A stretch of 52,725 nucleotides of DNA, filler included, from Sphacelaria rigidula (taxonomy: Eukaryota), in the NCBI GenBank assembly GCA_964200075.2. It is 4 parts of 4 records of this genome, joined end to end, with 100 filler letters (N's around TTAATTAATTAA, not from the genome) between each part and the next. Parts side by side here need not be neighbours in the genome. Positions count along the whole stretch, not along the records: positions 13,208 to 26,314 come from CAXNAA020003149.1; 3 more parts are not named here. One strand, 5' to 3'. The notes below the pieces were generated by a model. That model had not been told where the DNA came from and did no database searches. It saw only the letters and a list, made by a program, of their open reading frames with translations. Shown here piece after piece: positions 7,101-39,620 of this stretch. Numbering within the stretch: the stretch's first letter is position 1; each line of letters opens with the position of its first letter. Both the position numbers and the translations under genes were made by a program.

Positions 7101-10100
7101 AATTTAGATGATCAAGTGATTTTTTGTCTGGTCACTGCGGAAAATCCCAACTGAAGCACAGAATATAATGATATCTGTTTCGAGAAAAAAATGACCCGCA
7201 CGAACACGCACCTGTCCCAGCGAGGCTGCCGCCACCGGCACTTCGAACGCTGTGTCCGCATCCGCAAACACTTCGGCAAGAGGCCTGCCCAGTTGCTGGG
7301 TCAGGATGTCGCGGGCGTCACCCGAGTTGAACGGCTTCACCTGCGAGGTCAGTGCACATCAAGATCATCATCAAGGTCAACACACAGGCGGGAGTCATAT
7401 ATTGATGGCCTCCGAGCGCATGAAAAATTTGAAGAAAAGACGTACAAGAGAACAAACGCTCTCTGCCCCCTCAGTGACGCGCCCAGTAGCCACAACGATC
7501 ATCATTTCACCTCAACTATCGAGTGCGTGCCACGGCCCGGCGCTGCCCGGCACTGTTCGAAAGGTCTGAAGGGTGCGTGCAAGTAGGTGTTGCGTTTTTT
7601 GCGCGTGTGCTAGAGGTGTTGAACACCGGTTCGCGAGTTTACAGCATATATAGCATGCGACGCTCCGGCTGCTTTAGGGTCGCTGTAAACGAAGCGATTT
7701 TTCCTTGTTGTATAAAGCCACTGCAGCGTGGAAAGTTCCAGAGCATAAATGGGAAAGCTGCACAATAGATCCCCCACGACGTGCATCAAAAGAGAAGAGA
7801 AAAAATAAAACGTTTTGGATGGCTCTTCCAATGCGCAGAGTCAGCGCGCAGCCAACCTCTACATGACGCAGTATCACTCCACACAGAAGAGTGAAATACT
7901 CTGGGGCTCAAGATTGCGTCCACAATGGGGGTAAGGGTTTCTTGCATTCGGTTCCTCATGCTTCACACTAGTTTAGATGGAGGTAGAAGCTTGTCCTCTT
8001 CCCAAATTAGAACACGAGGGGGTGAAGCTACGTCTGTCCCCCGGAGGGACGTACGTCGGAACTTATATCGCATGCTTTTCGATAGAGTACGACTGTACGC
8101 CTGTTACTCCTTGTCTTTCTCGGCACCGCAGGCCCCTTTCAACGGATAGGATTCAAGTTTTGATTTCTCCCATCACTCTCAATTCCCGCCGCGAATGAAG
8201 GGGAAAGCGGCAGTTGAATGATTCACAGAATTGAACTAGGTGCTCTGTTCCACATCCCATCTCCATGTGTCATGACAGCATCGCCACTCCTCCGCCACCA
8301 TCACCGTCACTCCCCAGAGCAGCAAGAGTACATCTACAGTGCAGCGCACTTCTGGTGTGTGCGGGATCAGGGGTGTGCGCGTGCTCAACTGCCTGAAACA
8401 GGCAGCAGTGCTGACACTTTGGGGTGCACATTTTTACAGTTCCGAAACGGGAGCTTGTTTTATCAACCAACCTATTCTGGACGCCGGTCCACACCTTCCG
8501 GTGCATGTGAGCGCATCAGCCGGGGTCACACAGGAGGACGGTCAACACGGGAGCTTTTCATTGTTGGTTTGTTTTGTAAGTCCACCTTCCTCCTGAGGTG
8601 CTTGCCTTACTTTTTACCGAGAGAAGGGTTCAGTCGTTCCCTTCCCTCATCGACCATGAACTCGAACTTTGTACTTGCGACATAGCCGCACTCCTCTGTT
8701 GAGCATGATGCGAGAAAAATGCCGGATAGCGTGAGATCACCGAGGTTTAGAACCCAAGTCCCAGCCGTCAAAAACTTTCGAGGTAACCAACCGAACCACG
8801 GGGGCGACCGGCCGCATGGCCTTGGAAAATGACTCGTGCAAGTTCAACAAAAACAAATGACAATATGACACTGACGGAAACCGCTCAAAAACGGGGAAAA
8901 GCAGGAAAAAAAAACTCTTTCTGCCATCGTTTAGAATGGCCCGTGTTGAAGAATCATTCCTGCCGACGGTGCATATACGGACACCACGGGTACCGAAAAC
9001 GCTCAAAACAGGCAAACACTGTACTTGAATCCACATTTGCACACGTCGGACAGATCAGCTCCCTAGTAAGCTATGAGAGCTACATGAGCTACGCATGTTT
9101 CTTCTGGGGTGAGCTATGAGAGCTGTATGAGCTACGCTTGTTTACCGTACGTGAGCTACCAACCCGTAGCTCATCAGTTCATATTCGTCCTGAATGAGCT
9201 ATGGGAACTGTATGAGCTACGCATGTTTGCCCTGGATGAGCTACCAACCCGTAGCTCATCAGCTCGTATTCGCTCTGGGTGAGCTATGAGAGCCGCATGA
9301 GCTACACATGTTTGCCCCGGATGAGCTATGGGAGCTGCATGAGCTGGACATGTTTGCCCTGGATGAGCTATAAGAGATGCATGAGCTAGACATGTTTGTC
9401 CTGGATGAGCTATGGGAGCTATGAGAGCTACGATTGCCTATCCCTTTGACCGCGAGGGTAGGAGGTCTCTGAATCGGCATCATTCACACCCGAAAAATCA
9501 AGTGAATTATGCTGACTTATGAGATCGCCAACCCTCGCGGTCAAAGAGCTAAACCCTTGACGGCGAGCATAAGTCATCTATCTGTTGAATCGGCTCCACT
9601 TTCACTTGAAAAACGTATGCATAACCAGATGGCCTCGTACCCTCGCGGTCAACCGATCAAAATATTTGAATCAGTCGATTACTGTAGACACTGAATACTA
9701 ATACTTTTTTTAACCACCCGACCAAGCGAACGAGGATCTGTTGGGTTATTTTCTTCCTATCGCGACGAGTGAGGTCAAATATCACAACAACCTAATGATA
9801 TGTGGCACCATCCGTTCGAACAAATATGTTGCATCATAAGCGACACGGGGTTGGCCAACGACGAGCTAGCCATATGACGTGAGTGAGCCACGACCATGTG
9901 TCCCTGGGGTGAGCTACCGGGCATAGCTCATCCGCTCATGTTTTCCCCGGGTGAGCTACAAGAAGAGCTGCGTGAGCTACACATGTTTGCCTTGGGTGAG
10001 CTATCGAGCGTAGCTCATCCGCATATGGTTTCCCTGGGTGAGCTGTGAGAGCTACATGAGCTGCACATTTGTGCCCTGAGTGAGCTACCAACCCGTAGCT

Positions 10101-11920
10101 CATCAGCTCATATTCGCCCTGAATGAGCTATGGGAGCTGTATGAGCTACGCACGTTTGCGATACGTGAGCTACCAACCCGTAGCTCATCAGCTCAGATTC
10201 TTCCTGGGTGAGCTATGAGAGCTGAATGAGCTACGCATGTTTGCCCTGGGTGAGCTACCAACCCGTAGCTCATCAGCTCGTATTCGCTCTGGGTGAGCTA
10301 TGAGAGCTGCATGAGCTACACATGTTTTTCCTCGGTGAGCTACCAACTCGTGGCTCACCAGCGCACGTTTACCTCATGTTGAGCTATCGGACGTAGCTCA
10401 CATGTACATGTTCGACTACAAGTGATCTACCGCCCGCAGATGAGCTAGCTCATGAGCTGCCCTACGTGTGCACACTTGCTTGAATAGTGTTCGAAGAATG
10501 ATTACGGATTACGGAGCACCGAAAGGCTTCAGCGCTGGTGGGCATGGTTTATTGAGGACATGCGCTTGACAATTTCCGCGACTTGCAGAAGAACGGAAGA
10601 CATGAGTGCAGACATCAATGCAACGATGATATCACTTGTAAAATAAAAAATTCCCACATTTCTGCTACCGACATGAAGAATGAATACGAGCAACTATTGT
10701 GGTTTTTCAATAAAAGGAGAATGTTGGAGGGAAAACAAAAACATTCTCTGTTCAAATGTGCACGTCCGCATACATCTTCCCACCTTATCCTGTAGTTTTA
10801 CAAGCTCGCGAAGATAAGGCTCAGGCAAAATATCCGGGCGAATCGAAACTCCTTGACCTATCTTGATGAACGCCGGCCCAGCACCCTGCACAAACTCGAG
10901 AAATTCTTCCGCCCTGGCCTGCATGTTTCTCTCCCACGCGCTCCCGTCACCAACATTCCTGTCCACCCACAGCTTAGCCGCCAGCGATCCTAGCCGATAC
11001 GACACCTTAGACAATCTGCCGAGCAACGTAGCCGGCCGCCGATTATAGTAGTTCATGATCGCCGGAAGATCATAGCTTCGGGGTAAGAGAAAGTCGTCCT
11101 CCGTCGGGGACAAAGAGGATTTTTCTGCCTTAGCGGCCTCCGCTGCCGCCGCCAGAGACATTCCCAGGGCGGTGGACGCAGTCCCAACCGCGAATATCGT
11201 CACTGCCGCATGATACTGTTCTGGAATAAGGGTGGCGCCTGCAGCGTAGGCTTGCTCCAGCGCGGCCATGCTGTGCACTAGAGAAGACTGGAGGTGTGCC
11301 ACTGGGGTGGCTAGTGATGGGTATGCCGTGAGGAGAGTGTCGAGGGTGTCTGATGCTGATGCGGCTAGAGGCCGGAGGACATCGGCCGAGAAAGCTGCCT
11401 GTGAACTGGGTACACTTTGCAGTAGGTCAAGCGGTTGATGCAGCAGCCGGTTCGGCAGCTCACTAGTACTCGGCAGGGAGCTCAACAGCTCACTTAATAA
11501 GCTGCCGGCATCGGTTAGATCGGGCAATGACAATGATGATGGCAAATGAAGCTCTGGCAGATGAACGTCCGGCAGCGATAACCCACCCTCAATACCACCG
11601 TCGCTGCTGGTGCGGCTGCTGCCGCTTATCAAGGCGCTGAGCTGGCTCTCCAAGTCTGACTGTACACCCCGAGCGTTTTCCCGCAAAGCAGCCAAACCTG
11701 TTGTTGCCGCCGCAGCAAACCCGTCCAGCGACGAATCCATGCGCGTAACTCTGCTGTATTTTGACACTCTTCGTTGATTTGCCGTGGCGGAAAACAGATT
11801 ACCGCCGAGCCGAGAAGCGGTCATCGGCCTTGTAAGAGCAGTGAAGCCATGACACTCTCTGACCAAGAGCACAAGCAGTATGCACGAGCCAAGGCACGTG
11901 CTTGTTGGTGATGAAACCAT
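1172..11920 (-). CDS. ABC1/UbiB (ADCK)-family atypical protein kinase, probably plastid-targeted; multi-exon, 3' end not located (probably beyond window start)
   Basis: Exons assembled by eye with consistent phases: 11920-10784, 7340-7212, 6436-6204, 5669-5552, 4879-4691, 3327-3196, 2435-2278, 1337-1172. They give the ABC1 motifs GPAFIKIGQ, LQDKV, AAASLGQVY, VAVKVQRP, ELDY, LVTEWI, GFLHADPHPGN, LDMGLM and LEGLGLQLDP. The N-terminus MVSS..CILLVLLVRECHG/FTAL resembles a signal peptide followed by a Phe-starting transit peptide. Confidence 0.93.
3515..3765 (+). repeat. Dispersed intronic repeats (SINE-like families)
   Basis: CATCCCT(A/G)CAAAGCCGGGACGGAGCACGCCGGGTT..GCGAAGC(A/G)CCGTGATGT recurs at ~5255-5380 and partly at 26293-26314. 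The block 3694-3765 (ATCGCCACTTCC..GACAGCCAC.GCTTACAC) recurs at 1-70. Confidence 0.7.
6660..6793. mobile_element. Small MITE (TIR [C/G]AGTCATCCYACGATAGGGGG..TATTT)
   Basis: ~30-bp terminal inverted repeats at 6660-6690 and 6763-6793; non-coding interior. Confidence 0.7.
8440..8813 (-). mobile_element. tRNA-derived SINE-like repeat
   Basis: Minus-strand head GCCGGTCGCCCC.GTGGTTCGGTTGG...GGGTTCTAAACC carries degenerate A/B boxes. The body (CGCATCAGCCGGGGTCACACAGGAGG) recurs at ~31760-31945 and the head at 39621-39687. Confidence 0.65.
9042..10468. mobile_element. Non-autonomous TIR element carrying two GAGCT-rich minisatellite arms
   Basis: Ends CACGTCGGACAG / (rc) CACGTAGGGCAG are flanked on both sides by TGCA. 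Tandem ~40/80-bp units (GAGCTATGAGAGCTGCATGAGCTACACATGTTTGCCCTGGGT) lie at ~9070-9430 and ~9900-10460 around a unique core. Confidence 0.65.
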
Positions 11921-13107: not shown

Positions 13108-13207
13108 NNNNNNNNNNNNNNNNNNNNNNNNNNNNNNNNNNNNNNNNNNNNTTAATTAATTAANNNNNNNNNNNNNNNNNNNNNNNNNNNNNNNNNNNNN
13201 NNNNNNN
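13108..13207. other. Artificial contig spacer (N44-TTAATTAATTAA-N44)
   Basis: Identical 100-nt linker with stops in all six frames; also at 26315-26414 and 39521-39620. Confidence 0.97.
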
Positions 13208-13830: not shown

Positions 13831-16800
13831 GTCTGTAGATCGATCTGAGTAACGGTCCAGTACGATCGAGAATCTTTGATAGGATTAAGATACGAACTCT
13901 AGAGAAGAGGAGCACAAGAGAACTCACGAGCACGTCGCGAGCCCTACTCTTCCACTCTTCACTTCTCCAACTTCTCAACTGGAGTTCGACAGCCCATTGT
14001 ACTCTACAAGTCTGTGGTGACCATGAGCACCCATTCAACATAAAATCTTTCTTCTTGCACAGTTGAGCCACAGCTCGCTCTGCAGCTTAACATCTGCTAA
14101 GGTCAGCCTATTGCAGTCACTTGTGGGTGTACAGCAACACATCCGTGACAGGTTTTGAGCCATCGTTTCAGCGCGGCGCTAGTGCGGGGTATATCGGGGA
14201 GCGACGTCTTCGAGCATCCAGCACAAGCAAGCTTCAAAGACCTGTGTCGATAATTCTATAGACTGTGAGAAATTGTGAGTCAACCCTTCTGCGTCTGGAT
14301 ACTGGTCTGATCAGCTAGGATCCAAGATACTGCACAACAAGTGGGACGAACAAACTGGTTAGTGCATCGTATTCGGGGGCATTTCATGTAGGCCTTTTGT
14401 CGAGGAATAGAGTCCTGCGTCTGCATTTTCTGCGTGGCGATCATTACAACCGTTGGGGCGTTAGAATTTGTGGCATACAGTCGGATATTGCCCATTTTAG
14501 CCTGCACGTAAGGACGTACAGCGACGAGATCTGGACAGCACCTTCAATTGTGCCTAGGATCTAGATCGTTTAACAGAGTTTGCGTCGAGCAGGGAGACGA
14601 CTGCAGAGTAGCTAGCTGCAGCCGTGAGCACCTACACGCACAGCGTGTAGCAACGAAATCCGGACAGCACCACATTCGCGCGTCGAGCATTTTCACAATC
14701 TCGGGGCGTTGGAATCGTGCCTAGGATTTTGTCTCTAGCAGCGTTTGCGTAGACCTAGACACGGCTGCACCAGCTAGAGTAGCTACGGTACAGCCGTTTG
14801 AACCCTGCACGCACGACGTGCAGCAACGAGATCCGGACAGCACTACATTCGCGCGTCGAGCATTTTCACAATCTCGGGGCGTTGGAATCGTACCTGGGAT
14901 TTTGTCTCTAGCAGCGTTTGCTTAGACCTAGACACGACTGCACCAGCTGGAGTAGCTACGGCACAGCCGCTTGAACCCTGCACGCACGACGTGCAGCAAC
15001 GAGATCCGGACAGCACCACATTCGCGCGTCGATTTCTTACGGTCTTGGGGCGTTGGAATCGCGTAGAGTCTGGCCTGATACTTCGAGAGTTCTACAGTTG
15101 AAGCAGCTGCGACATTACGGAACAACCATTCAACGTACAAACAACTCTGAAGTCAGTCTCCAAGTTCGACGGAACGAGAACAATGTTCTGCGAATGGCGG
15201 TCAAAAGTTCGGGTATTAATCACTATTCAAACGAGTTTCTCTTCGATATTTTGGAGGGGAAGAAACGCCCTGAGCCAGCAGAAGGGCAGCTGCTGGCCGA
15301 CACTGCAGGAGCGCCTCCACCGATCGCGCAAGCCATTGAAAAATGGCAACGCGGTAATCAAGATATTTTCCCCATTTTGTACCTCGCCACCACAGGGTCA
15401 GCAAATATCCACGTGCGACAGTACAAGGGCCGGAGGCAGGGGGGGGGACTTGGCGATGGGATTGCTGCCTGGAAAGCCCTTGCGGGCGAATATGACAGCT
15501 ACATGAAAGAGACGCGACGAGCATACTACGACGAGCTGTGCAACACAAAGACAGGATCCAGAGGACTTCTTTGACAAAATGGACGACCTTCGGGTTCGGT
15601 TGCATGACATGGGAGAGGTGGTCTCTGACGAGCGTTACGAGGACATCATTCTGCACTCCATCACGAACGACTACGACTTTGTAAGACAGACCAGCTTCCG
15701 CGACCGTAACTGCGGCTTGGAGGAGATAGCGTCCACCATACGGAACATGTTTATCGACAACCTTTCTCGCGTATTCACAAAATCTGTTGTGGGTCGCGGC
15801 ATGGCCATGTAGGCGGCGCACGGCAACCTCAGTAGCATCCAGTGCTTTAACTGCGACGAATACGGGCACCGTCGCAATACATGCCCTGAATGTCTGCGAT
15901 AGAGATCACAAGAGCACCAACAACAGCAGAGGCAAAAGAAGAAGCACTGGGAGAATGAAGGGGGCGGAAATCCCAAGTGGTGTTCTTTACACAAGACAAA
16001 AAGTCACAGCGACGAGCAGTGCTGCAAGCAGAAGGCTACAAAGAAGGATCAAGCTAGCAGCATCAACTTTGCCAACATTGGCAGCGCGCGAATTGCCCAG
16101 ACAGCAGAACCCGAACAGTCAAGGTTTGGGTTTTCCTTCACATCTGTTGGGACTACGCTCGCGAACGTGGCGGACGAATCCAAGAAGTTGGAAGAGCCCG
16201 ACAAGTCAGTCTTGGTTCTTGGACCGACGCCGGGGAAAACACTTGAACAACGGACTGCAGATATTCGGGGATTATTTGGGGCGTTAGGCGAAGTTCCGAA
16301 TGGGGAGCCATATATTGCTACGCCAACGGCCTTGGGCTCGGTGGGGCACAATGGGGATGGCATCAACGGCACATCCCTGATCATGCTGGTGGATAGCGGT
16401 GTATGTTGACACTACCTGGACAGCGACCTCGCTCCCAGAATTCAACGTCGGATGACAAACCTAGCGAAGCCGAAGCCGAAGCAGCCTCACAGGGTTGTTA
16501 CCGCTGGTAAACACATCGCGGAAGGCGTTGCGACGGACACCATTTCTGGTACTGTCACCGACAGAGACGGCGAGAAGCATCCAGTTTTACTCTCGGTCAT
16601 CATCGTGCCTGGTCTGGGACTGCACCTCTTTTCAGTAACTGCGGCATCAAACATGAGAGCTGTTACCATTTTCGACTCTGTTCAATCGCGCGTGAAGATG
16701 GGAAACATCACTCCGCCGTCGAAACGGCTTCGTGGCGACGAATTGTTGTACTTCTTTTCGTTGGATCTGAGGGGTGTAATAAGGGGAACGGCCATACGAA

Positions 16801-16965
16801 CAGAGTCGGCGAGCGTGTGGCAACGGCGTTTGGGACACGTCAACCATTCTAAAACGTAGCCCACCGCGGTGCGGGTAGTCCATTTGGATCACGCATACTT
16901 TTGCAAGTGAAAATTGATGCCGATTCAGCAGGTGATCTACGCTCGCGGTCTGAGGGAGGGGACCT
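13831..16965 (+). mobile_element. Ty1/Copia LTR retrotransposon, internally deleted and decayed
   Basis: A putative LTR ending ..GTGACA is followed by the Copia-type primer site GGTTTTGAGCC (14151). Gag ORFs 15053-15574 and 15579-15812, zinc knuckle CFNCDEYGHRRNTC (~15843-15884), second WCSLHKTKSHSDEQC motif, protease LVDSG (~16386), GAG-pre-integrase WQRRLGH (~16818) and purine tract GAGGGAGGGGA (~16952). Stops and frameshifts throughout; no integrase core or RT. Confidence 0.85.
14520..15062 (+). repeat. 173-bp tandem repeat in the Copia 5' leader
   Basis: GCAACGAGATCCGGACAGCACCACATTCGCGCGTCG starts at ~14650, ~14823 and ~14996, with a more diverged copy at ~14521. Confidence 0.85.
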
Positions 16966-18994
16966 GAAAAAATGTTCGTAGATAATAGTTGATGGGGAAC
17001 ATCATGGAATGTTACAAACTAACACTGAAGTCGTGGTCTGATCACGAGGTGATACTGGTTTCACTCTCGTAGAACACACCCGGCCAGGAGTGACACGAGG
17101 TCAGCGGCTGGCCACATCGAACAATCCCAGTCGAGAGGAATGACCCTTGAGCTCGTGAGTAACAGACCATCGGGTCCGATAAGCACTGCATCGCAAGGCC
17201 AAGCAGGGACTCACTTTCACGTGCAGAAGAGGTGCTCTTGACTTACTATCAAGCGAGATGTCTCCAAGTGGTGGCTGATAGCTTCGTCATTAGGCTTAGC
17301 TACTAGTTAGCTACAACTGAGGTTACTGGGTGATGGAAGTTGTGAGGGCGGTGGGCTCCGGTCAAGGACGCCCGATTGGAATACAACACCAACATGCGAA
17401 TGGAATAAGACCTACTGCACTTGCCACGCATACTGCAAAACGCCTACTACACATACAGTCGATATCCGCCGTAACACTAACACTAACAACGCTAACCCTA
17501 AACCCGACCCAAGGTGCACGAGACCCTCGGGCAAGGAGGGTGCATAGATTCCCCTAGGAAAAGTATGCGTTGGAAGACTTCGAATCGTCGCGGCAGGCGC
17601 CGATTTCGACAAAAACACGTTCTGGACGAGCTGGGTCCACTGCTCACCTGCCCCAAACCATATTTTTTTCAGAACTTTATCAAGTCTAAAATCGAGTAGT
17701 CACCCCTGCCAACCTTTGTGTACGAACATTTGTTTAGGTCTACTGCTCTAAGAGTCATCAACTAGCCTCTTATTATGCTACAAGCCAATGTGTCGTGTAG
17801 CAATTCGAAAGGTGCACGTGACCGCCGTTCCCAAAGCGGCCACTTTCCCTCAGGTAACAAGAGTCCTTTCAATCATGTGGATGTAGTTAGGAAAATCGAA
17901 CTGTTTTGTTTTTACAGCTGTTGCGATATTCCGTACATGTTGTTACGGCGGGTGACCTCTGTGTAGACACCAGCCAAAACAGTAAAGCGACGAAAGCTAG
18001 CCTCAAGACCTTTGCGGACGGCGGTTGATGGCGTGGGTGTCTTATGAAACGACAGGGAGTTGATCATAGAGCATTTTTGTTCCTTGTGGGGTCATATCTC
18101 GCCCCAGGTTGTAATGCATGACCTCCTCACATTGGAATCAATTCTGGAAAGCTACTGGACCGAGGTGTTCAAGCAGCCAGTGTGTGTTCCAGATCGCAGC
18201 ATGGACCCACCCTTCTGCACCACACTAGCAACGGTTAGGTCACCACCATAGGTATATTTTTTCACTCCGCATGTCAAGAAGGTCTCCACGATTGTTTGAT
18301 CTCTCATACACGCCCCCAACCGGGGTGTGGCACGCTCTTGTGGTCGGGCATCCAGAGGGTCACATGCCGGGTAAAATCAACGATGAATAACACCCCCCAA
18401 GTTCAAATTGTATATGTTACTATGGCCGCAGCGCACCGTCCTTGCTGGCATGTGTGTGACAGAGAACAGTAGTAGCGGTGACGGGAACATTGCCCTATTT
18501 TTCAACGACATCTTTTTCAGCACACAGAGGCGCGTCCTGTCCAAAAAGAGAGGCAGAGAGAAATCGATGTTCGCATTGATGAGCTCGACAGGCAAGAAGA
18601 GAAGAGGTCCCTTCGCAGCTCGATGATTTTGGGGGGGCTGTGCGCAGCAACACAATAAAATGCCTACCGACACATGAGAAAGTGGGTACATGCTGGTAAA
18701 TATGCATGATGCCGGTCTCCCGAGCGATTGGTAATCGCCGAGCGAAGACACACAAAGGACACGGGCGAGGAGCTTCCTCTCTGTCGTTGCTTCTCTATGG
18801 TGATATCGTCATGGACATGCGTGTACGCCGCATTCGTTTGGTGCACCTAGCCACAAGTGATTCACTGCTGCTGAGTTTCGGGGGGAAATATGGTTTCGCT
18901 CTGTGTAACTGTGTCACATCGTCCCTGCAAAAAAGATATGCTACTTGAAGCTCGCTTTACAGATCAACCCCAAAAACTAGGATCCGCTGTTAAC

Positions 18995-19338
18995 AGGGAA
19001 TTATATAAAATGAGGTTGATCAATGAAATTAGGTTTGAGGAGGCTAGCCAGTATGCGACAAAAACCCGAGGAAAGTACCGTCCGCAAATGCCTTCGATCA
19101 TTACCGGAGGGGGGGGCGTACTCATTTGTTACTTGCCTTAGTCGTTTGACCATTGACCACCCCCCGTCTCGAAAGATCACTGGTCAAACGACTAAGGCAA
19201 GCAAAAAGTGAGTACGCCCCCCCCCCGGTAATGATCGAAGGCACTTGCGGACGATACTTCCCTCGGGCTTTTGTCGCATACTAGCTAGCCTCCTCAAACC
19301 TCATTTCACTGATCAACCTCATTTTATAGAATCCCCTC
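18995..19338. mobile_element. Foldback MITE with ~135-bp inverted arms
   Basis: 18995-19128 (AGGGAATTATATAAAATGAGGTTGATC...GGGCGTACTCA) is the reverse complement of 19206-19338. Confidence 0.8.
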
Positions 19339-20456
19339 TTTGTTATATTATGTGACTATACAAGGAGAGGTAATTGTGTGAATATACCCCTATCTCACGC
19401 CAGCTACTGCTAATATTCTACTGTACTGTCGTCCTCACAGTGTCTTGAAATGAATAGTTCCGAGGGCACGATCAACAGGACGCACCACCTTGGATCGTGC
19501 GCGTCTCGCGGAATAGTGGCTTTGTACGGGCTAGCCATTTAGATCGATCGAAGAGTACGGCGTGACGGTGACTGCAAGCGTTAGATCCCCAATACTGCCC
19601 CCAACAGACATAGTCGTGTCTGGAAGGCAGACAAGCGATGCCAAGCCGCAAAAACAGGACATGCTCCCACGGTGGATGCGGGAAGCAGTCATTGCACAAC
19701 TTAGACGGCACTCGGACTACGGTATTCTGCTCACAGCACGCCGCGGAGAGTGTGGTAGATGTAACGATCAGTAGGCGCTCCGGCGAGGGCTGCTCGAAGA
19801 GGCCGTCGATCGGGTCGGAGCGAAGCATAAAGGAGGAAGTCTATTTACAGCACGCCGAGGAGGAGACGGTGAATGTTATCAATAGGAGATGCTTCGACGA
19901 GGACTGCTCGAAGAGGCCGTCGTCCGATTCGGAGGGTAGGAGGACGGCGACGTTCGGCTTATATCACGCCGAGAAGCGGATGGTAGATGTTGGGAGCAAG
20001 AGGTACCGCGAGGGCTGCTCCAGGGCACCGTCGTTCGAGTTGGAGAGAAGCAGAAAAGTGGAGTTCTGCTCACAACCCGCCATGGATTGGATAGTGTATG
20101 TTACCAATATGAGGTGCTCCGGCGAGGGTTGCTTCAAGACGCCGTCGTTCGGGTTGGAAGGAAGCACGAAGATGGAGTTCTGCGGATAGCACGCCGAGGA
20201 GGGGATGGTCGATCTATGGGAAAGTTGCTCCCTTGAGGGCTGCTCTAAGAGGTCATCATTCGGGTCGGAGGGCACCCGGACTCCCGTGTTCTGCTCACTA
20301 CACGCCGAGAGAGGAAATGAAGATAGAATGATCAAGAAATGCTCCCTTGAGGGCTGCTCTAAGGCACCGTCGTTCGGGTTGGAGAGCCCTCGGACTGCGG
20401 TGTTCTACTCATAGCGCGCCGTGAAGGGCATGGTGCATGTAAAGGGCAAGAGGTGC

Positions 20457-20733
20457 TATAAAGCCCTCCTGGACTCAAAACAAGGTCACAAGACTGCTCC
20501 AAGGGCTTCCTTCCTCACTAGGGCTTGGACATTTCAAGACCGTGGTTGTTCGCAAACACACAGTCTTCGATATGGGAAGTAAGCTTGCACCTCCTTGAAT
20601 ACATATACTGTCAAGGAGTCATGGTCATACTCCAGAGAATATATCATGATGTAAAGGTCATATTCGAACTTCCATGGATCAACCTGCAGCTCCTCCTGCA
20701 TCTGTACGTGTACTAGAGGTGAACTACGCTACA
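20457..20733 (-). repeat. 3' LTR of Gypsy element
   Basis: Direct repeat of 24817-25106 (about 19 substitutions by eye and one 13-bp indel). Confidence 0.92.
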
Positions 20734-23700
20734 GCACCCCCAAAACTCCGCACTACTCGAAGTAGAAAGCGAGAGTGACAAACAGAAGACACCGAGAATC
20801 ACGTTCATGCTACCTTTGTCCGCCTGTTCGTGACACATGACCATGCAATGTCATGTTCACAAAGGAAATGACCATTTGCAAAACGCTGAACAACGACACT
20901 TGAACATAGCGTCTCAATCGAATTCAGTGAATTCAATTATTCAGTCAATGGCAATTTCCAGTCGTGGCATACTCACACAAAGCAAACGCGCCAAGGATAA
21001 TACCATTTCGAACCGTAGCATTCGATCATATCACACACTCAAAGCTTGATACCGTGCTATGCCTACAAACGTGCCCGCACCTTTTGACTCAGTTCCAACT
21101 GACGCAGCTCAGAACAAATATGCGGCGCTCCTTCCAGACAAATGGGCACACCATCCACATTCTCCGTTTTTCAGATGCGAAACACCACCCGTGCGCTTAT
21201 CCAAACACATGGCAAGCCATCAAAAGACGTGCCACAGTAAAAGATCACTGTATTCGCGACTGCTGCCGAGATAGCCCCCCCCCGAACAAGTGCACGGAGG
21301 CGAAGATCATAAATGCCGTAGAGACCTGATTTCGTGCTGCACGTCGCGACTCATTTGGGCGTGATAGCTGATTTCGGACTGCTACACGCCTCTTATGTGG
21401 GTGAAATTGCTGCAAACGAGCCCAATAGTGGGATTGCAGCCGATTTGTCGGACGGTCTCCGGTGCACTTTCTGTGGGGGGGTTATCTCGGCATTAGTCTC
21501 GCGCATGATTTATTTCATCGTCAACCTCTGGAAATACTCACATTATACTTGTTCACGTACAAGCCTACGCATTTCGTACTTTCCGCTCATTTTCACGCCA
21601 ACAGCAGCATACACCATCTCCTACAGTCACTTTCTGCAAACTGCACAAAGATGATCCCACTTTTCTCCGCGAACAAGAATATACGAGCTTTATTCCATTC
21701 AGCACACAGCAGTGTATTGAAAACTGCCTAACTCTGACTCTTCATCAGACACCATGCACATCAGTCACATATGCATGCTAATATTTCACTCAGCCGCTTC
21801 TTTGCAGAAACCACCATGATGTATCGTGCGTGCCAACCAGAGCAACATAACACACAGATCCAGGAGCCACACCACAACCACCTACAATCGTCCACAACAC
21901 GACTCAGGTGTACAAGTCATGATGTGCTTCCACATTATCAACGAGCAACTACATCAGTACTTGCTCCTTAAAATCACCCAACCCGGCGCTCACAACATCA
22001 AGCACCTCAGGTAATGCCTTCCTTGTAGTTCTCCTGCGCTCCTCCTGAGAAACAGCAGCTCTCCGGCTACAATCTCGTCCATACCGTAGAGTGGCATTTA
22101 CACTCGACCAGTCGCTCCTCGCATCACAGATACAGCTACAGCTCTCACAGCGGTCCCGAAAATCAGTGTGTACTGCCGACTGCACGGCAGGGACCAAACC
22201 CACCCAGGCATCAGCATCGCGTCTTCCTGACTTATTACCTTCAAGGTACGAACAATGTCGCGCATCATTTGCTCACGTTCACGATGTGATAACCGCGAGT
22301 TGGCCACCACTACGAGTACTTAAACGAATCTCCTTCGTCCAAGCCATTTTCTCCCAGCGGACCACCCTCGCCAACACCGAGAAAATTGAAATGAAGAACC
22401 TTTCCTGGGCAAGCACCATGCACCACCTCCTTGTGGGGACGGCGAACTTCCTCCCCCGCTTTGTATGCACTCATCCAGCGAAAACAGGACTTCTCGGGTG
22501 TTGCAATCGCCGCTCTCGCCCACTCTACCTGCGAACTGCAGTACACGAGCCCGAGCGCCACCAATGTTGCGATGCAGCGTGCCAACCACGCCATCCTGAC
22601 CGGAACGTACGCCCTCGGCCGAGCCTTCGCCTCCACACCAACAGGTTTAAATTTCACCTTCAAGGGCTCGACGCGAGTAGGCGGATAGCCATGCAGCACT
22701 TGCCTAAAAATGCTCGCTCTGTTCCGTACAGGCTCACGAATCTGGCTCACGTCGCTCTCCGATATGCCGTTATCCGCGGCGCCTTGTACTCCCTCATCCG
22801 GCGCAACATCAAGCTCAGCAAACTCTTGCTCCGGGAATATGCTCATTGCCGGACTCCTCGACAACAACCGCTCGACTGAGGAATTAACGGGCTCCGCCTG
22901 ACCTCCTGCTTGCTGTAAAGCGTCTACCGCGTTACTGACACGCCGATAGTTCATCAAATGAGGCGTGTTTACACCTCGCACCGAAGTGTTTCGTGCACGT
23001 GCACGGGCACCTAAGCTACTGTACACGCCAATGCCCAGCGCCTCCAGCGTAGGGCTCCCCGTGATGATCACATCATCTGTCCCCGGCAGGACGGGATATG
23101 AACATGGGTCCAGCACAACCGGTCCCCAGCTGGTGTGTGAAGCGGTCCGGACAGGGCAAGTTTTCTACTTCACGCGCTAAACATTGCCGTGAGCCAGTTT
23201 CACCAGCTGTTCACCAACCATCGGTGTGACCACTCAAACCTCTGGAACCGTAGCTTGTAGTTTCGCTGCTACACCCACTGACATGGTCGTGATTCTAGAT
23301 CCCGAGTCTAAAATGGCCTTGACCGTACAAGCACTCTGTGCCCCTGTACTCGGTACAGACACGTCGGCGAGACACCATCGTTCCTCTTTTTCTACGCGTA
23401 TACCCTCAGATTGAAAGCCTGATATCTCACCCTGCTTAAGCGATCTCCACGACGACATCGCCCAAGATGTCCAGCGCGGAACTGTTTCCCCTGTTTCCCC
23501 CGATACGGTCTGCTGTATGCCATCAGTAGGAATGACCGGTTCTGGTCGTAGCATCGCTCCACTGCTGGGAGCACCCCCTCCATCGGTTGAAAATACAGCC
23601 CATGTAGCGGCAGGACTCTTGGCCCCTCCTCGAGGCACCTATCCAGGGCTCTGCGACAGCTGCTGCTGTTGTTGCTGCGTGTCGCCGGCCTTCGACTGCC

Positions 23701-24816
23701 CACCTGGAGTATGTTGTGGAGCAGCAGCTTGGCGTTGCTGCTTACAATCCTTCACGAAGTGGCCCTTGTCTTCACATGAGAAACAACCTGCATAGCTTGG
23801 GCCCGGTTCCCGAGATTTCCCGGAACTAGCAGTCTCACTGCCAGTGGTTGCCGTTTTTTCTCCATTCGGTTGGCGCTTGGACCCGGAGGTCCCGCTGCCG
23901 CTCTTCTGTTTCAGCTGCGGCTGGTGACGGCGCTGTTTATCAGCTGCTTCTACCGTCTTCCATGCCTCTGCTGCTTCCCGAGCCGTATCATACACGAGCC
24001 CAGGGTCCTCTCTCCCCCCCCCCCCTTCATGTGAAGCATGTTGAGTACTTTTGTCTTGAATTCAGGGGGTGACATGCCGGCGAGCAATTCCCGCGAAATG
24101 ATTTTTGCGGGTCCTGCTTTGAAAGTCTCGTCCTCGCGGAACGCGCGCTCGATACTCGCGTTTTCGGCAAAAACCTCCTCGAGGGCACCCCACTGTCCCT
24201 CGATTCTACCCATGGCAGTCAGCTCGTTGCCAGCGGCCAACGCCTTCCGCACACCCGCTGCAGCAACTGAAGGATCGATCTCTGTATCAATCCAACATTT
24301 TGCATGTCGGCCCAGTGCCTCCTTCAGATGTTCATCATCGAGTACCGATCCATCAAATATTGTACGTTATAAACACGCGCGAATATGCTTGGGCACGAGT
24401 TCTGTCACGGTCAATAAAGCGGCCTGTACTGTCCTCCCCTTATTGCTTAGTTGTACGGTCTCTTCGTAATCCCTATATTTTTGAAAAAACCATCCGGAGG
24501 CATCTTCTGAAATGCCGCCCGTACCCCGGTGCTTTTAGCGATCCACCTGGCATAAGCTCAGTAAATTTAAATGTCACCTCACCTCTCACCTGCATCGCTC
24601 CCACCTCCTTTCCTGCGTGCTGCCATTCTTCCTTAGCCGCCCGCAATGCTTTCAGCCAACGTAGCCGCCCCTCTGTTCAACGAGCTACAACGAGCTGCCT
24701 CGCGTTACAGACTGCACACCTGTCTGTCTACAGTACAAAGATGTTTTTGCAGAGACTGTCCGCAGCTGAAAAACAACTTTGCTAGAAACCAGTGGTTTCC
24801 CTAAATACAAGTTTAT

Positions 24817-25106
24817 TATAGAGCCCTCCTGGACTCAAAACAAGGTCACAAGACTGCTCCAAGGGCTTCCTCCCTCACTAGGGCTTGGAGACTTCAAGAC
24901 AGTTGTTGATCACAAACACACAGTCTTCGTTATCGGAAGTAACCTTGCACCTCCTTGAGTACATATTCTATCAAGCAGTCATGGTCATACTCCAGAGAAT
25001 ATATCATGACCTAATATCATGATGCAAAGGTCATATTCGAACCTCCATGGATCAACCTGCAGCTCCTCATGCATCTGTACGTGTACTAGAGGTGGACTAC
25101 GCTACA
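24817..25106 (-). repeat. 5' LTR of Gypsy element
   Basis: Direct repeat of 20457-20733; begins TGTAGCG on the minus strand. Confidence 0.92.
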
Positions 25107-26314
25107 GTGCTCACGCAAGGGCTGCTCCGAGACGCCGTCCTTCGGGTTGCAGGGAAGCAGAAAGGTGGAGTTCTGCTTTTAACACGCCGAGGAGGTAGTG
25201 GTAGATGTAAGGAGAAAGAGATGCTCCCGTGAGGGCCGCTCCAAAGTACTGTTATTCGGGCTGGAGGGCACTCGGACTGCGGTGTTCTGTTCATCAAACG
25301 CCAAGGAGGGGATGATAAATGTAAGGAACAGGAACTACCCTGACGAGAGCTGCTTCAAGGTACCGTCGCTCGGGCTGGAGGGCACTCGCACTGCGGTGTT
25401 TTGCTCACAGCACGCCGAGGAGGATATGGTATATATAAGGCGCAAGAGGTACTCCCGCGAGGGCTGCTCCAAGGTACCACCGTTCGGGCTGGAGGGCGCT
25501 CGAGCTCCGATGTTCTGCTCTCAAGACGCCGAGGGGAGAATGGTGAATGTAGAGGCCAAAAGGTGGTCCGGTGAGAGCTGCTCCACAAGGTCGTCATTCG
25601 GACTGGAGGGCACTCCAACTCCGGTGTTCTGTTCTCAAGATGCCGAGGAAGGGATGATGAATGTAGAGGGCAAGAGGTGCTCCCGCGAGGGCTGCTCCGA
25701 GAGACTATCGTTCGGGTGGGAGGAAAGCAGTAAAGTGGAGTTCTACTCTTTACAACACGCCGAAGACGGGATGGTACATAAGGGCAAAGAGGTGCTCCCG
25801 CGCGGGCTGCTCCAAAGGGCTGTCGTTCGGGCTGGATGGCACTCAGACTGCGGTGTTTTGCTCACTATACGCCGAGGAAGGGATGGTAGATGTAAAGAAC
25901 AAAAGTTGCTCAGGGGAGGGCTGCTCCAAGGCACCGTCGTCCGGGTTGGAGGGCACTCGGACTGCGGTGTTCTACTCACAGCACGCCGAGGAGGGGATGG
26001 TAAATGTAAAGCGCAAGAGGTGCCTCCCCGAGGGCTGCTCCAAGATACCATCGTTGGGGTTGGAGGACACTCGGACTCCGGCGTTGTGTTTAGCGCACGC
26101 CGAGGACCACACGCCGAGGACCACATGCCGAGGAGGGGATGGTAAATGTCAAGAACAAGAGATGCTCCGATGAGGGCTGCTGGAAGATATTATTCGGGCT
26201 AGAGTGCACTCGAACTCCGGTATTCTGCTCTCAAGACGCCGAGGAGGGTGAGGGTGTACTCATGACCATGCATGCCATAGTCATCAGACAATCGACCTCG
26301 CATCCCTACAAAGC

Positions 26315-26414
26315 NNNNNNNNNNNNNNNNNNNNNNNNNNNNNNNNNNNNNNNNNNNNTTAATTAATTAANNNNNNNNNNNNNNNNNNNNNNNNNNNNNN
26401 NNNNNNNNNNNNNN
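26315..26414. other. Artificial contig spacer
   Basis: N44-TTAATTAATTAA-N44. Confidence 0.97.
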
Positions 26415-37700: not shown

Positions 37701-39520
37701 GCGTTGGGCAATAATTGACAAGGAGGGTTTTGCCATCGTGAGCACTTTTCGTCGTCTTGAGCATTTAACACGGGATCTTTCAAATTGGGGATGAATCTTT
37801 TATTGGGGATGGGAAACCCGGAAAACTAAAATCTTCGTATCCACACCAAATCTTCGAAATATGGTTGTACTTTTTCACCTTCTGATAGCTATTGACAACT
37901 GCTACACGCCATACAAATTTGGATCTCGATCACCGAAATGTTGGGGTCCTAGGGGAAAAAACAATTTTGGGGAATTCCGGGTGTCCGAACGGACGCTAAA
38001 ATGGTTCTGAAGTTGGTTTTTCACCTAGGACCCCAACATTTTGGTGATCGAAATCCAAATTTGTATGGCGTGTAGCAGTTGTCAATAGCTATCAGTGGGT
38101 GAAAAAGTGGAACCATATTTCGAAAAAATGGTGTGGATAAGAATATTTTAATTCTCCGGGTTTCCCATCCCCAATAAAAGATCCATCCCCAATTTGTAAG
38201 ATCCCGTGTTATTTATTGCGGAATGGCGTACACGTTTACACGGATCACCGAAATCTAGCGTACATTTCCAACCCGGAGGCATGCGTGACGTCTGTATCGA
38301 AGGCGTCGGCACAGCGATTGGAGGGATGGAAAGGTGTATTAGGACAGTATCGGTACACGATTTGTCATATTTCGGGTGAGCGTAACGCGTGGGGTGACTT
38401 GCTGTCGCGCTGGGTATATATTCCCACTTTGCCTGCGCGCGCTGTGGCTGTGTATGGCCCGTGCGAACCTGATTACTCGATGCCGCCCAAATCTGTTGTC
38501 CGCCATGCGAAACGAAAAGACCTTGGGGCCGAAGATGCGGATGTGCAATCCTTCGAGTCGGACGTTGGTACTGCTATCGTGGAAAATGAAGGTCTGTCTC
38601 GTGTGCATGTGCGTGGCCGAAACGTTTTGTGGATTTCGAGTTCTGACAAGCAGTTGCACGTACGTCTGATGATTTGCGCGCACATGCGCGACGCCGGGCA
38701 TCGTGGTGTGGCTGCGACGCTCGTGCGCTTACAAGAGTTTTGTGTCTGGAAGGGGATAGAAACTAATGTGCGCGAATTTGTCCGCCAGTGTCTTCACTGT
38801 GCTGACTCGAGGGCGGGCGATGTTGTTCCCCGCCCGCTCGGTGAAACGGTTCATGGGACCACGCCGAATGAAGTGGTTCATTTTGACTTCTTGCACGTAG
38901 GCGAGAGTGGCCCGCTAGCTTCCCAAGGTTTGTCGGAGGATGCTGGATTCCGATACATTTTGGTCATCATGGATGATTTGAGCAATTTCGTGGCTCTGGA
39001 ACCAGTAGCCGTGTGTACTGCTGAATCGACTGCTGCGTCTTTGCTGAACTGGTGCAAAACTTTGGGGGTGCCCCGTGTGTGGGTAAGTGATACCGCCACG
39101 CATTTGAAAAATGCGATCTTGGCTAGGTTGCGAGAAGCTTTGCGCGTTGATCACCGGTTTGCGGTAGCGTGTTTTCTGTGGTCTAACGGTACGTGCGAAC
39201 GCATGGTCAAGGAAGTAGTTCGTGCTCTTCGATCTATTCTTCTCCAGCAGCGTCGAGAGGTGACCGAGTGGGTGGACGTGTTGCCCGCTGTACAATGGGC
39301 GCTAAATATAGCATATCGTCGTCGGTACGATAGTACGCCGTATCACGTGATGTTTGGCCGTGCCCCTCGGACGTCTTTCTCGGTGCTGGCGTACTCGTCG
39401 GCCGGGGAATGGAAGTGTGATGTTTCGGACGATGTTCAAATTAAGAGTGCATTGAAATGAGTCTTGGACTTGCAAGAACGTTTCCAAGTTCAAGTGCAGG
39501 AGCGTGTTGCAGCTGAACGT
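34765..39520 (+). mobile_element. Ty3/Gypsy LTR retrotransposon, RT core deleted, truncated by contig end
   Basis: Gag 35266-~36050 with CFQCGQVGHIAR*C knuckle; protease AVLDSGA (~36630); RT N-terminus (PARVEPMRV..KPRRY); RNase H (FPDA..W..EPLAFLS..RWAIIDKEGFAI..VYTDHRNL); integrase with HHCC (H..AGH..CLHC) and D,D,E (HFDF, VSDTATH, ERMVKE). The 5' LTR boundary (~34765-34957) is tentative. Confidence 0.9.
37767..38210. mobile_element. 444-bp foldback MITE with 4-bp TSD inserted in Gypsy RNase H
   Basis: Perfect ends AACACGGGATC...GATCCCGTGTT, ~190-bp inverted arms, TSD ATTT at 37763-37766 and 38211-38214. Removing it restores RRLEHLLRNGVHVYTDH in frame. Confidence 0.93.
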
Positions 39521-39620
39521 NNNNNNNNNNNNNNNNNNNNNNNNNNNNNNNNNNNNNNNNNNNNTTAATTAATTAANNNNNNNNNNNNNNNNNNNNNNNN
39601 NNNNNNNNNNNNNNNNNNNN
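39521..39620. other. Artificial contig spacer
   Basis: N44-TTAATTAATTAA-N44. Confidence 0.97.

Follow-up and report, generated by a model that had tools for sequence, protein, structure and literature searches.

A pseudogene of the EsV-1-7 repeat family in the brown alga Sphacelaria rigidula and its intact, modular paralogues

The window analyzed here, a stretch of 52,725 nucleotides from the Sphacelaria rigidula assembly GCA_964200075.2 (G000), consists of about four unrelated contigs of ~13.1 kb joined by N44-TTAATTAATTAA-N44 spacers, and the contig at 13208-26314 (G000:C3149) bears an array of EsV-1-7 repeats (Table 1). Besides the array, Pfam matched only weak retroelement domains on this contig; the intron-dense host genes described as its neighbours in the original prediction sit on other contigs of the window. 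The family profile PF19114 (cut-off 25 bits) matched both halves of the array, at 19614-20186 (E 7.6e-40) and 25183-26142 (E 2.2e-43), with scores of 135 and 146 bits, and other frames scored 66 and 110 bits. A nucleotide HMM recovered 17 units with a 114-nt period and C-x4-C-x16-C-x2-H-x12 spacing, so the predicted family identity, unit number and Cys/His spacing all hold. Neither half contains an intron, again as proposed, and the frame starts with an ATG at 19638. However, the units do not form the single tandem run that had been described, but are divided 7+10 by an LTR element, which makes up ~70% of the span first reported.

Table 1 Features of the contig bearing the EsV-1-7 array, in window positions.
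Feature	Position	Strand	Basis
Decayed copia-like gag / pre-integrase fragment	15102..16856	+	PF14223 E 3.6e-4, PF13976 E 2.1e-3, both under cut-off
MITE-like inverted repeat immediately 5' of the paralogue-homologous flank	18992..19340	.	Repeat search
5' flank homologous to flanks of intact paralogues, including their acceptor-like site	19366..19637	+	Alignments to L102, L096, L094
Start codon and 8-residue leader	19638..19661	+	Homologous to starts of L096 and L102
EsV-1-7 units 1-7; codon-25 stops in unit 5 (TAG, 20187) and unit 7 (TAG, 20412)	19662..20453	+	PF19114, nucleotide HMM
Target-site duplication GTGC, left copy	20453..20456	+	LTR-end analysis
LTR, 277 bp (3' LTR, assuming a minus-strand element)	20457..20733	-	Direct-repeat pair
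Internal part of decayed or non-autonomous LTR retroelement	20734..24816	-	Weak zinc-knuckle match 23642-24061 (PF00098 E 5.9e-4, just under cut-off)
LTR, 290 bp	24817..25106	-	Direct-repeat pair; K2P distance 0.072 to other LTR
Target-site duplication GTGC, right copy	25107..25110	+	LTR-end analysis
EsV-1-7 units 8-17; codon-25 stop in unit 8 (TAA, 25180)	25108..26249	+	PF19114, nucleotide HMM
High-copy dispersed repeat truncating the array	26252..26314	.	Repeat search; loose contig ends at 26252

The interrupting sequence (20457-25106, 4.65 kb) is assigned to the LTR elements by its two direct LTRs and 4-bp duplication, which falls on the codon for the first Cys of unit 8. Its family, with ends TGTAG or TATAG..CTACA, has 461 candidates in the genome, 40 of which were scored. 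Pfam gave no reverse transcriptase or integrase match in the scanned ORFs of the insert, which is therefore classed as an LTR retroelement without assignment to Ty3/gypsy or another superfamily. In a single RNA run, chosen by guess, long pieces lay on the LTR element only, which has no bearing on expression of the array. A contig of another sample (X5) spans the right LTR junction, and no joint across the element, as in an empty-site allele, was present among the contig matches listed. Assembly error as the source of the lesions was ruled out by identical lesions on contigs of other samples, one of which (X3) has 0 differences to the locus over 19584-20333 and 25312-26279.

The LTR insertion, three in-frame stops, two frameshifts and 3' truncation bear out the suspected pseudogenization. 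The frameshifts (+1 in unit 13, +28 in unit 16) and the truncation of unit 17 at ~26252 had escaped the original prediction; unit 16 contains a 14-bp x2.8 duplication at 26096-26134. Only 5/17 units keep all four Cys/His ligands, the other 12 having decayed, and the intact reading frame, tested as a family trait, is absent from the locus. The contig ends at 26314, which places the C-terminal tail of the array outside the window. Two types of unit can be told apart in this copy by TRTA/TRTP/SRKV at positions 17-20, and its units are near neutral, compared with a mean charge of +2.5 for intact-family units. With high confidence, the locus belongs as a pseudogene to a large host family whose EsV-1-7 array genes have a single coding exon, and this copy yields no useful protein.

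All three stops replace the Gln that precedes the His, at codon 25 of the unit, just as the original prediction had noticed. Recoding, in which these stops are read through or edited and the array is a live gene, would fit the low probability of 3/3 stops on codon 25 under independent mutation (P about 0.003-0.005) and the 3/8 stops that this codon holds in 39 paralogue regions. Nevertheless, it is extremely improbable, since the gene is broken regardless by the LTR insertion, the two frameshifts and ligand loss in 12/17 units. Moreover, with C>T 4-5 times as frequent as each transversion, codon 25 is the codon of the unit most prone to become a stop (15%), and units 5 and 8 are mutually close (79%), so that two events may suffice (P 0.057). 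Three tight stop-pattern searches, with patterns too narrow for a hot-spot test, gave 0, 2 and 0 matches, the first of them being the genome-wide pattern for a codon-25 stop.

The genome contains 4575 PF19114 candidates, the best 150 of which fall on 93 contigs. Intact paralogues are many: 86/93 of these contigs have frames of 400 aa or more (median 791). Intact members have 10-40 small Cys/His modules in line in a single exon, and each of two annotated public proteins agrees in every letter with one uninterrupted genomic frame. The absence of introns had suggested a viral-derived or retroposed copy, an idea said at the outset to fail if host genes normally carry such arrays in one exon and the locus has spliced flanking exons. 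In this genome the intronless layout is indeed usual, host genes as a rule having their arrays in one open frame (the same 86/93 contigs), and a viral or retrocopy origin is not supported; spliced flanking exons at the locus are putative. Nor have introns been lost relative to a parent, as in a processed retrocopy, since the paralogue arrays are themselves uninterrupted.

The relationships of the units also point to the host. With equal-size pools, window units best match their own paralogues (57% identity), followed by other brown algae (50%) and nuclease-fused proteins (39%; best identity per unit about 39-42%), the viral label of which is inferred. Five window units that are not 114 nt long were excluded from the identity and omega counts, and ten homologues sharing the species label of the two letter-for-letter matches were dropped from the pool of other brown algae as non-independent. 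In a quick unit tree the nearest rows to the window units were likewise their own paralogues, contrary to the viral closeness envisaged, although the tree is mostly unresolved and places four nuclease-fused rows among algal rows. The 5' flank aligned with those of L102, L096 and L094 with scores of 79, 67 and 49 (best of 100 shuffles 32, 34 and 38), and this homology extends upstream past the acceptor-like site, which in the paralogues is probably the end of a 5'-UTR intron, to judge from sequence. At this locus the site is degenerate, with an alternative CAG at 19438-19440; a generic splice-acceptor filter, which this locus failed, was weak (15/38 sense vs 8/38 antisense).

A giant-virus insertion or processed retrocopy could still draw on the intronless coding part, the presence of the repeat in EsV-1 and other giant viruses, the deep viral origin argued for the domain in published work, and at least one NCLDV capsid gene in the genome. 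However, the capsid match lies on C185, outside the set of 93 contigs with arrays, and the expected viral core genes were absent from the scanned ORFs of the 13-kb contig. One query of the genome with a nuclease tail, run with no positive control, returned no match, and the queries used found no relative in phage records or IMG/VR. No poly(A) was seen, and A12 runs were absent from the 2 kb next to the stop in the paralogue regions, ~7/40 of which lack downstream DNA; a poly(A) or nuclease tail of this copy may be lost, since its 3' end is missing beyond 26252 and the contig end. Taken with the host-like units and flank, this origin is largely refuted and very unlikely. The locus arose by ordinary DNA-level duplication, its units kept exchanging within their own array before the gene died, and its death involved the LTR insertion, three nonsense changes, two frameshifts, Cys/His loss and the 3' repeat insertion, in whatever order.

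Among the 39 paralogue regions, 29 share an adjoining 5' flank of at least 300 nt with another region, some over more than 3 kb at ~85%. The nearest neighbour of 366/513 units lies in the same gene, and sister genes are unequal in unit number. The predicted modular array diversifying by recombination thus describes the intact paralogues and not this copy, and the locus is best read as a discarded member of a birth-and-death family. The 33-gene set is made up of the 40 regions minus seven, namely one duplicate contig and six whose frames are short or broken or that have fewer than five strict units.

The analysis of per-position variability and dN/dS singled out positions 9, 35 and 36 of the unit, which outpace silent sites in intact genes. 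Omega at these positions was 1.6, 2.0 and 1.6 in pairwise comparisons and 1.9, 1.8 and 1.7 on trees, compared with 0.29-0.39 for scaffold blocks, and conversion between units can inflate the counts at all three. Relative to the silent rate of each site itself, the values were 1.25 for position 9 (p 0.046), 1.63 for position 35 (p 3e-4) and 1.45 for position 36 (p 0.009), and position 35 alone stays significant after correction for 34 sites. Of the residues originally thought variable, the one after GCS (position 9) is indeed hypervariable, whereas TRTA/TRTP/SRKV are not in intact genes, where positions 17-20 measure 0.7-1.2 bits and positions 16-22 have an omega of 0.37. Overall constraint is weak, with omega 0.56-0.78 outside the ligands, which are fixed by the selection filter.

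Intact tails combine a basic, NLS-like K/R patch with psi-K-x-E SUMO-consensus motifs. Fifty-three such motifs were observed vs 3.2 expected, in counts to which related tails do not contribute independently, and 25/30 tails have two. The pairs are spread over several tail types and also occur in P0009 of another brown alga, while the motif is missing from 7/8 proteins of other brown algae. A hydropathy window above 1.5 occurs in only 2/40 frames, the tails are otherwise near neutral (omega 0.85), and the ESM Atlas returned nothing for them. From their motifs, the tails look nuclear and SUMO-tagged.

A link to nucleic acids comes from fold matches to viral 'endonuclease' entries and from a nuclease-like motif that ends 71/120 homologues, a call based on the motif and weak Hjc matches (E 0.09 and 1.2). 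In addition, the Ectocarpus Mariner transposase TcMar-2_Ec32 carries an N-terminal EsV-1-7 domain (PMC12477816); Pfam matched no transposase family in the ORFs scanned beside the present array or the 39 paralogue regions. The ESM Atlas gave EsV-1-7 clusters only, with a minor Zf_WRKY19 co-annotation (12%). The model of the unit has strands and no helix (pTM 0.40), and no solved structure in PDB was matched by sequence profile, Foldseek or VIA-align; positions 9/35/36 are therefore not placeable on a DNA-facing surface.

The living family would consist of nuclear, modular regulators that probably bind DNA and resemble KRAB zinc-finger proteins without belonging to them. We consider a dead host paralogue of such a living, KRAB-like family, taken as a whole, the reading with the better chance of being right. 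How the family might work can be outlined with slightly less than even confidence. Each 38-residue unit would bind one zinc via C-x4-C-x16-C-x2-H, and along a chain of 10-40 units positions 9, 35 and 36 would serve as changeable recognition residues, the order of units being rewritten by unequal crossing-over and conversion. The disordered tail would take the protein to the nucleus and be SUMO-modified at two psi-K-x-E sites, and this modification would bring a repressive complex to the DNA that the array binds, the likeliest targets being transposons or viral DNA. The logic of KRAB zinc fingers would then have been reached with another fold. The full proposition, that brown algae independently built hundreds of recombining single-exon arrays with a three-position code and a SUMO-coupled repressor tail against transposons or viral DNA, out of a repeat common to giant-virus nucleases, is rather unlikely in all its parts together.

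Equally doubtful is an account in which the same dead paralogue belongs to a family of variable sensors or scaffolds with proteins or RNA, not DNA, as binding partners, either resembling immune receptors or, as with IMMEDIATE UPRIGHT (IMM), developmental. Variable surface positions and array turnover suit any diversifying binder, the units of this subfamily are not basic, IMM has a developmental role, and a developmental co-expression module is enriched in EsV-1-7 genes (10.64898/2026.04.27.720984). In contrast, the fusions to nuclease-like and transposase domains indicate DNA, and the NLS-like, SUMO-consensus tails indicate chromatin. Still less probable is the view of the family as a coding minisatellite, for the most part selfish or under weak constraint, that spread through segmental duplication or was carried by an unrecognized large transposon, and most copies of which do little. 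The omega values (arrays 0.78, tails 0.85), the hundreds of loci amid repeats with kilobases of common flank, and the EsV-1-7 domain of TcMar-2_Ec32 would agree with it. However, frames of 800-1470 aa are still open on 43/93 contigs despite ~30% silent divergence between units, two short motifs are kept in otherwise drifting tails, and 139/165 flanking ORFs scanned include no transposase, helicase or polymerase family, with one copia RT and one weak unrelated match.

KRAB zinc-finger genes have a one-exon 3' array, variable fingerprint residues, segmental duplication, many pseudogenes and LTR-rich surroundings (PMC11952569), and are reportedly linked to transposon repression (PMC10547256). The EsV-1-7 family resembles them in its single-exon arrays, fast fingerprint positions (with the caveats on omega) and birth-and-death. 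Unlike them, it has CCCH units of a 38-residue period, for which strands but no recognition helix are predicted, a disordered tail at the C terminus as candidate effector, and putative DNA binding; Pfam and PDB searches matched no C2H2 finger, and Pfam no KRAB domain in P0008, P0040 or the window frames. Within the family (PF19114 / IPR043822), IMM has an IMM-specific amino-terminal domain followed by five repeats. The present copy is dead and has 17 or more units vs five, with a leader of 8 residues. By layout alone it would be no IMM orthologue, and an upstream coding exon may yet exist.

By itself the locus is an ordinary pseudogene, and the interest lies in the intact family, the largest orthogroup in brown algae and one without known molecular function. 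The accessible brown-algal EsV-1-7 literature makes no mention of long single-frame arrays, three fast sites or paired SUMO-consensus tails. With many intact long arrays, candidate specificity positions 9/35/36, a nuclease-fused counterpart and a pair of candidate SUMO lysines in each tail, the question of a novel zinc finger is now open to direct experiment. A KRAB-like system, if true, would be a striking convergence and a possible new engineering scaffold, as a new programmable DNA-binding module. It would also help explain how brown algae, in which 5mC is negligible and H3K9me and H3K27me3 are absent, silence transposons, a process described as largely unknown in PMC12477816. The intact arrays share the unit, the predicted fold (E 1.8e-12 and 3.8e-13) and the intronless layout with the giant-virus EsV-1-7 protein Q8QNQ2 and the faunusvirus 'Endonuclease' A0A3G4ZWE6. 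Unlike giant-virus repeat-nuclease fusions, the host tails listed include no nuclease-like tail and end in NLS-like and psi-K-x-E motifs.

This locus holds a new but no longer intact gene of the known EsV-1-7 family, distinct from IMMEDIATE UPRIGHT (IMM): a dead copy within a family of single-exon arrays that evolves by duplication, unit turnover and loss. A nucleotide profile made from paralogue units detected 17 units, and PF19114 matched each array half far over the Pfam cut-off (E 7.6e-40 and 2.2e-43), in agreement with the original prediction of about 17 repeats. Twelve units are 114 nt long, two 111 nt, one 115 nt, one 142 nt and the last 87 nt, with a ligand spacing of C-x4-C-x16-C-x2-H-x12. 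The array had been described as one continuous tandem series, but a 4.65-kb LTR element separates units 1-7 from units 8-17. Because the cut in unit 17 lies at ~26252 and the contig stops at 26314, the tail of the gene lies out of view.

Features of the array-bearing contig (window coordinates)
Feature	Position
MITE-like repeat	18992-19340
EsV-1-7 units 1-7	19662-20453
4.65-kb inserted element	direct LTRs 20457-20733 and 24817-25106
EsV-1-7 units 8-17	25108-26249
High-copy repeat truncating unit 17	from ~26252

Along with the LTR insertion and the truncation, the array carries stops in units 5, 7 and 8, a +1 frameshift in unit 13 and a 28-nt duplication in unit 16, and 5 of the 17 units retain all four ligands. 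This damage bears out the predicted pseudogenisation, and the locus is very probably a pseudogene. Assembly error as the source of these lesions was ruled out by contigs of another sample (X3), identical to the window over 19584-20333 and 25312-26279 (0 differences), together with a contig from another study (X5) spanning the right LTR junction. As also predicted, the in-frame stops share one codon: all three fall on unit codon 25, which has the unit's top stop risk (15%) because C>T is 4-5 times as frequent as each transversion, as measured in LTR copies, and which carries 3 of the 8 stops across 39 paralogue regions. P is 0.003-0.005 for three independent codon-25 stops and 0.057 if copying between units 5 and 8 (79% alike) reduces the events to two. 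We attribute this clustering to mutation bias combined with chance or conversion, apart from a small residual excess.

The inserted element is flanked by a 4-bp GTGC target duplication sited in unit 8 at its first Cys codon, and the K2P between its LTRs is 0.072. Its LTR family is abundant in the contig set of this genome (461 candidates, 40 of them scored). Among the family copies L077-L086, the majority start with TATAG rather than TGTAG, and L084 resembles a solo LTR with a 4-bp TGCA duplication. Within the element, 21280-21500 is an inverted, very high-copy segment with a depth 50-100x that of the remainder, probably a nested MITE. Besides the array, a Pfam scan of the contig (58 of 78 ORFs of at least 70 aa, and eight more in a separate scan) gave weak copia gag, pre-integrase and zinc-knuckle matches and two weak unrelated ones. 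A tandem repeat (14605-15061, 173 bp x2.7) lies immediately upstream of the copia-like gag fragment.

A viral or retroposed origin had been proposed from the lack of introns beside intron-dense host genes. The genes compared, however, lie on other contigs: N44-TTAATTAATTAA-N44 spacers recur every ~13.2 kb (13108-13207, 26315-26414 and 39521-39620), so the window comprises about four unrelated contigs placed in order of length, with the array on C3149 (13208-26314), and neighbourhood arguments across spacers are void. PF19114 gave 4575 first-look candidates in this genome, of which the best 150, a set biased toward intact copies, sit on 93 contigs; open frames reach 400 aa or more on 86 of these and 800 aa or more on 43. 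The 40 paralogue regions examined carry arrays of 6-38 units, mostly in a single frame, and each of two annotated public proteins shows an exact match to one contiguous frame; intronless arrays are therefore the family norm. Moreover, paralogue flanks are collinear: in 29 of 39 regions, homology to another paralogue extends over at least 300 nt of the adjoining 5' sequence, in some cases >3 kb at ~85%. The paralogue regions showed no poly(A) run within 2 kb of the stop. Correspondingly, the 5' flank of the locus itself (19366-19660) gives alignments with L102, L096 and L094 that clearly exceed those of shuffled sequence. This alignment crosses the place of a pyrimidine-rich CAG site common to L037, L091, L093, L096, L098, L101, L103 and L106, which, judged from sequence, probably marks a 5'-UTR intron. 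In equal-sized pools, window units were 57% identical to their own paralogues, 50% to eight other brown-algal proteins and 39% to nuclease-fused proteins; a quick, poorly resolved tree agrees in placing them nearest their own paralogues. A search of 139 of the 165 ORFs flanking paralogue arrays yielded no viral or transposase family. Taken together, these results identify the locus as a host duplicate rather than a viral insert or, as far as testable, a retrocopy. Whether the EsV-1-7 domain ultimately came from viruses, as argued in 10.64898/2026.04.27.720984, is a separate matter. The sole NCLDV major-capsid match in this genome (C185:22782-23342) marks a candidate endogenous giant-virus region.

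Of 513 strict units from 33 genes of the intact family, 366 most closely resemble another unit of the same gene; among 12 sister pairs, the best within-gene match exceeds the best sister-gene match in 10. The dead array has two unit types and an 81% self-match at a five-unit offset, indicating the same unit-turnover history as living genes. Within genes, positions 9, 35 and 36 are most variable, whereas the TRTA/TRTP/SRKV residues (positions 17-20), predicted to vary, are conserved in intact genes. Pairwise omega (dN/dS) at 9/35/36 was 1.62, 2.00 and 1.58 against all silent sites (gene bootstrap >1) and 1.91, 1.81 and 1.74 on trees, counts that conversion may inflate, vs 0.29-0.39 for scaffold blocks; against local silent rates the values were lower (1.25, 1.63 and 1.45) and only position 35 survived correction. 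The longest array seen, L096 on contig C5360, is uninterrupted and comprises at least 37-38 units; its 1474-aa frame runs past the contig end, and it is among those closest to the window locus. The public protein P0040 (435 aa) covers only the final part of the 908-aa open frame of paralogue L107, so annotations may begin at an internal Met and understate array length.

Paralogue tails, 70-300 residues long, evolve nearly neutrally (omega 0.85), yet 25 of 30, across several tail types, keep two psi-K-x-E motifs, which we take to be the SUMO consensus (53 observed vs 3.2 expected from shuffles). Most tails with the pair also carry a K/R patch, presumably an NLS. Of the proteins from other brown algae, P0009 has two psi-K-x-E motifs and seven have none. 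Modelled with AlphaFold, three units (pLDDT 74, pTM 0.40) form short strands and no helix; the model had no match in the PDB but matched EsV-1-7 and several giant-virus 'endonuclease' entries. A nuclease-like motif ends 71 of the 120 homologues listed (268 found), with weak Hjc support for one of them.

In the mechanism we propose, the units would bind zinc, the variable positions would set specificity and the tail would act as a nuclear, SUMO-modified effector. DNA would be the likely ligand, given that fusions of this repeat to nuclease-like and transposase domains occur elsewhere. The living family is quite possibly a DNA-binding regulator; repression of transposons or virus in the KRAB manner is less likely. 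The family is organised like KRAB zinc-finger genes as described in PMC11952569, although the window gene is not one of them. The EsV-1-7 passages of 10.1101/2024.02.19.579948, 10.64898/2026.04.27.720984, PMC12477816, PMC12993054 and PMC7457493 do not mention fast sites, SUMO motifs or the KRAB analogy; gene structure could already be covered in the 2017 IMM paper or in the bioRxiv supplements (including Table S17 of the 2024 paper). The family anatomy found via this locus opens EsV-1-7 function to direct testing.

Elsewhere in the window, the first contig carries satellite-like 85/42-bp arrays rich in GAGCT (9025-10427). On the third contig (36190-39460), long ORFs encoding integrase zinc-finger and core domains represent another LTR retroelement, which contains an inverted repeat of 202 bp (37766-38211).
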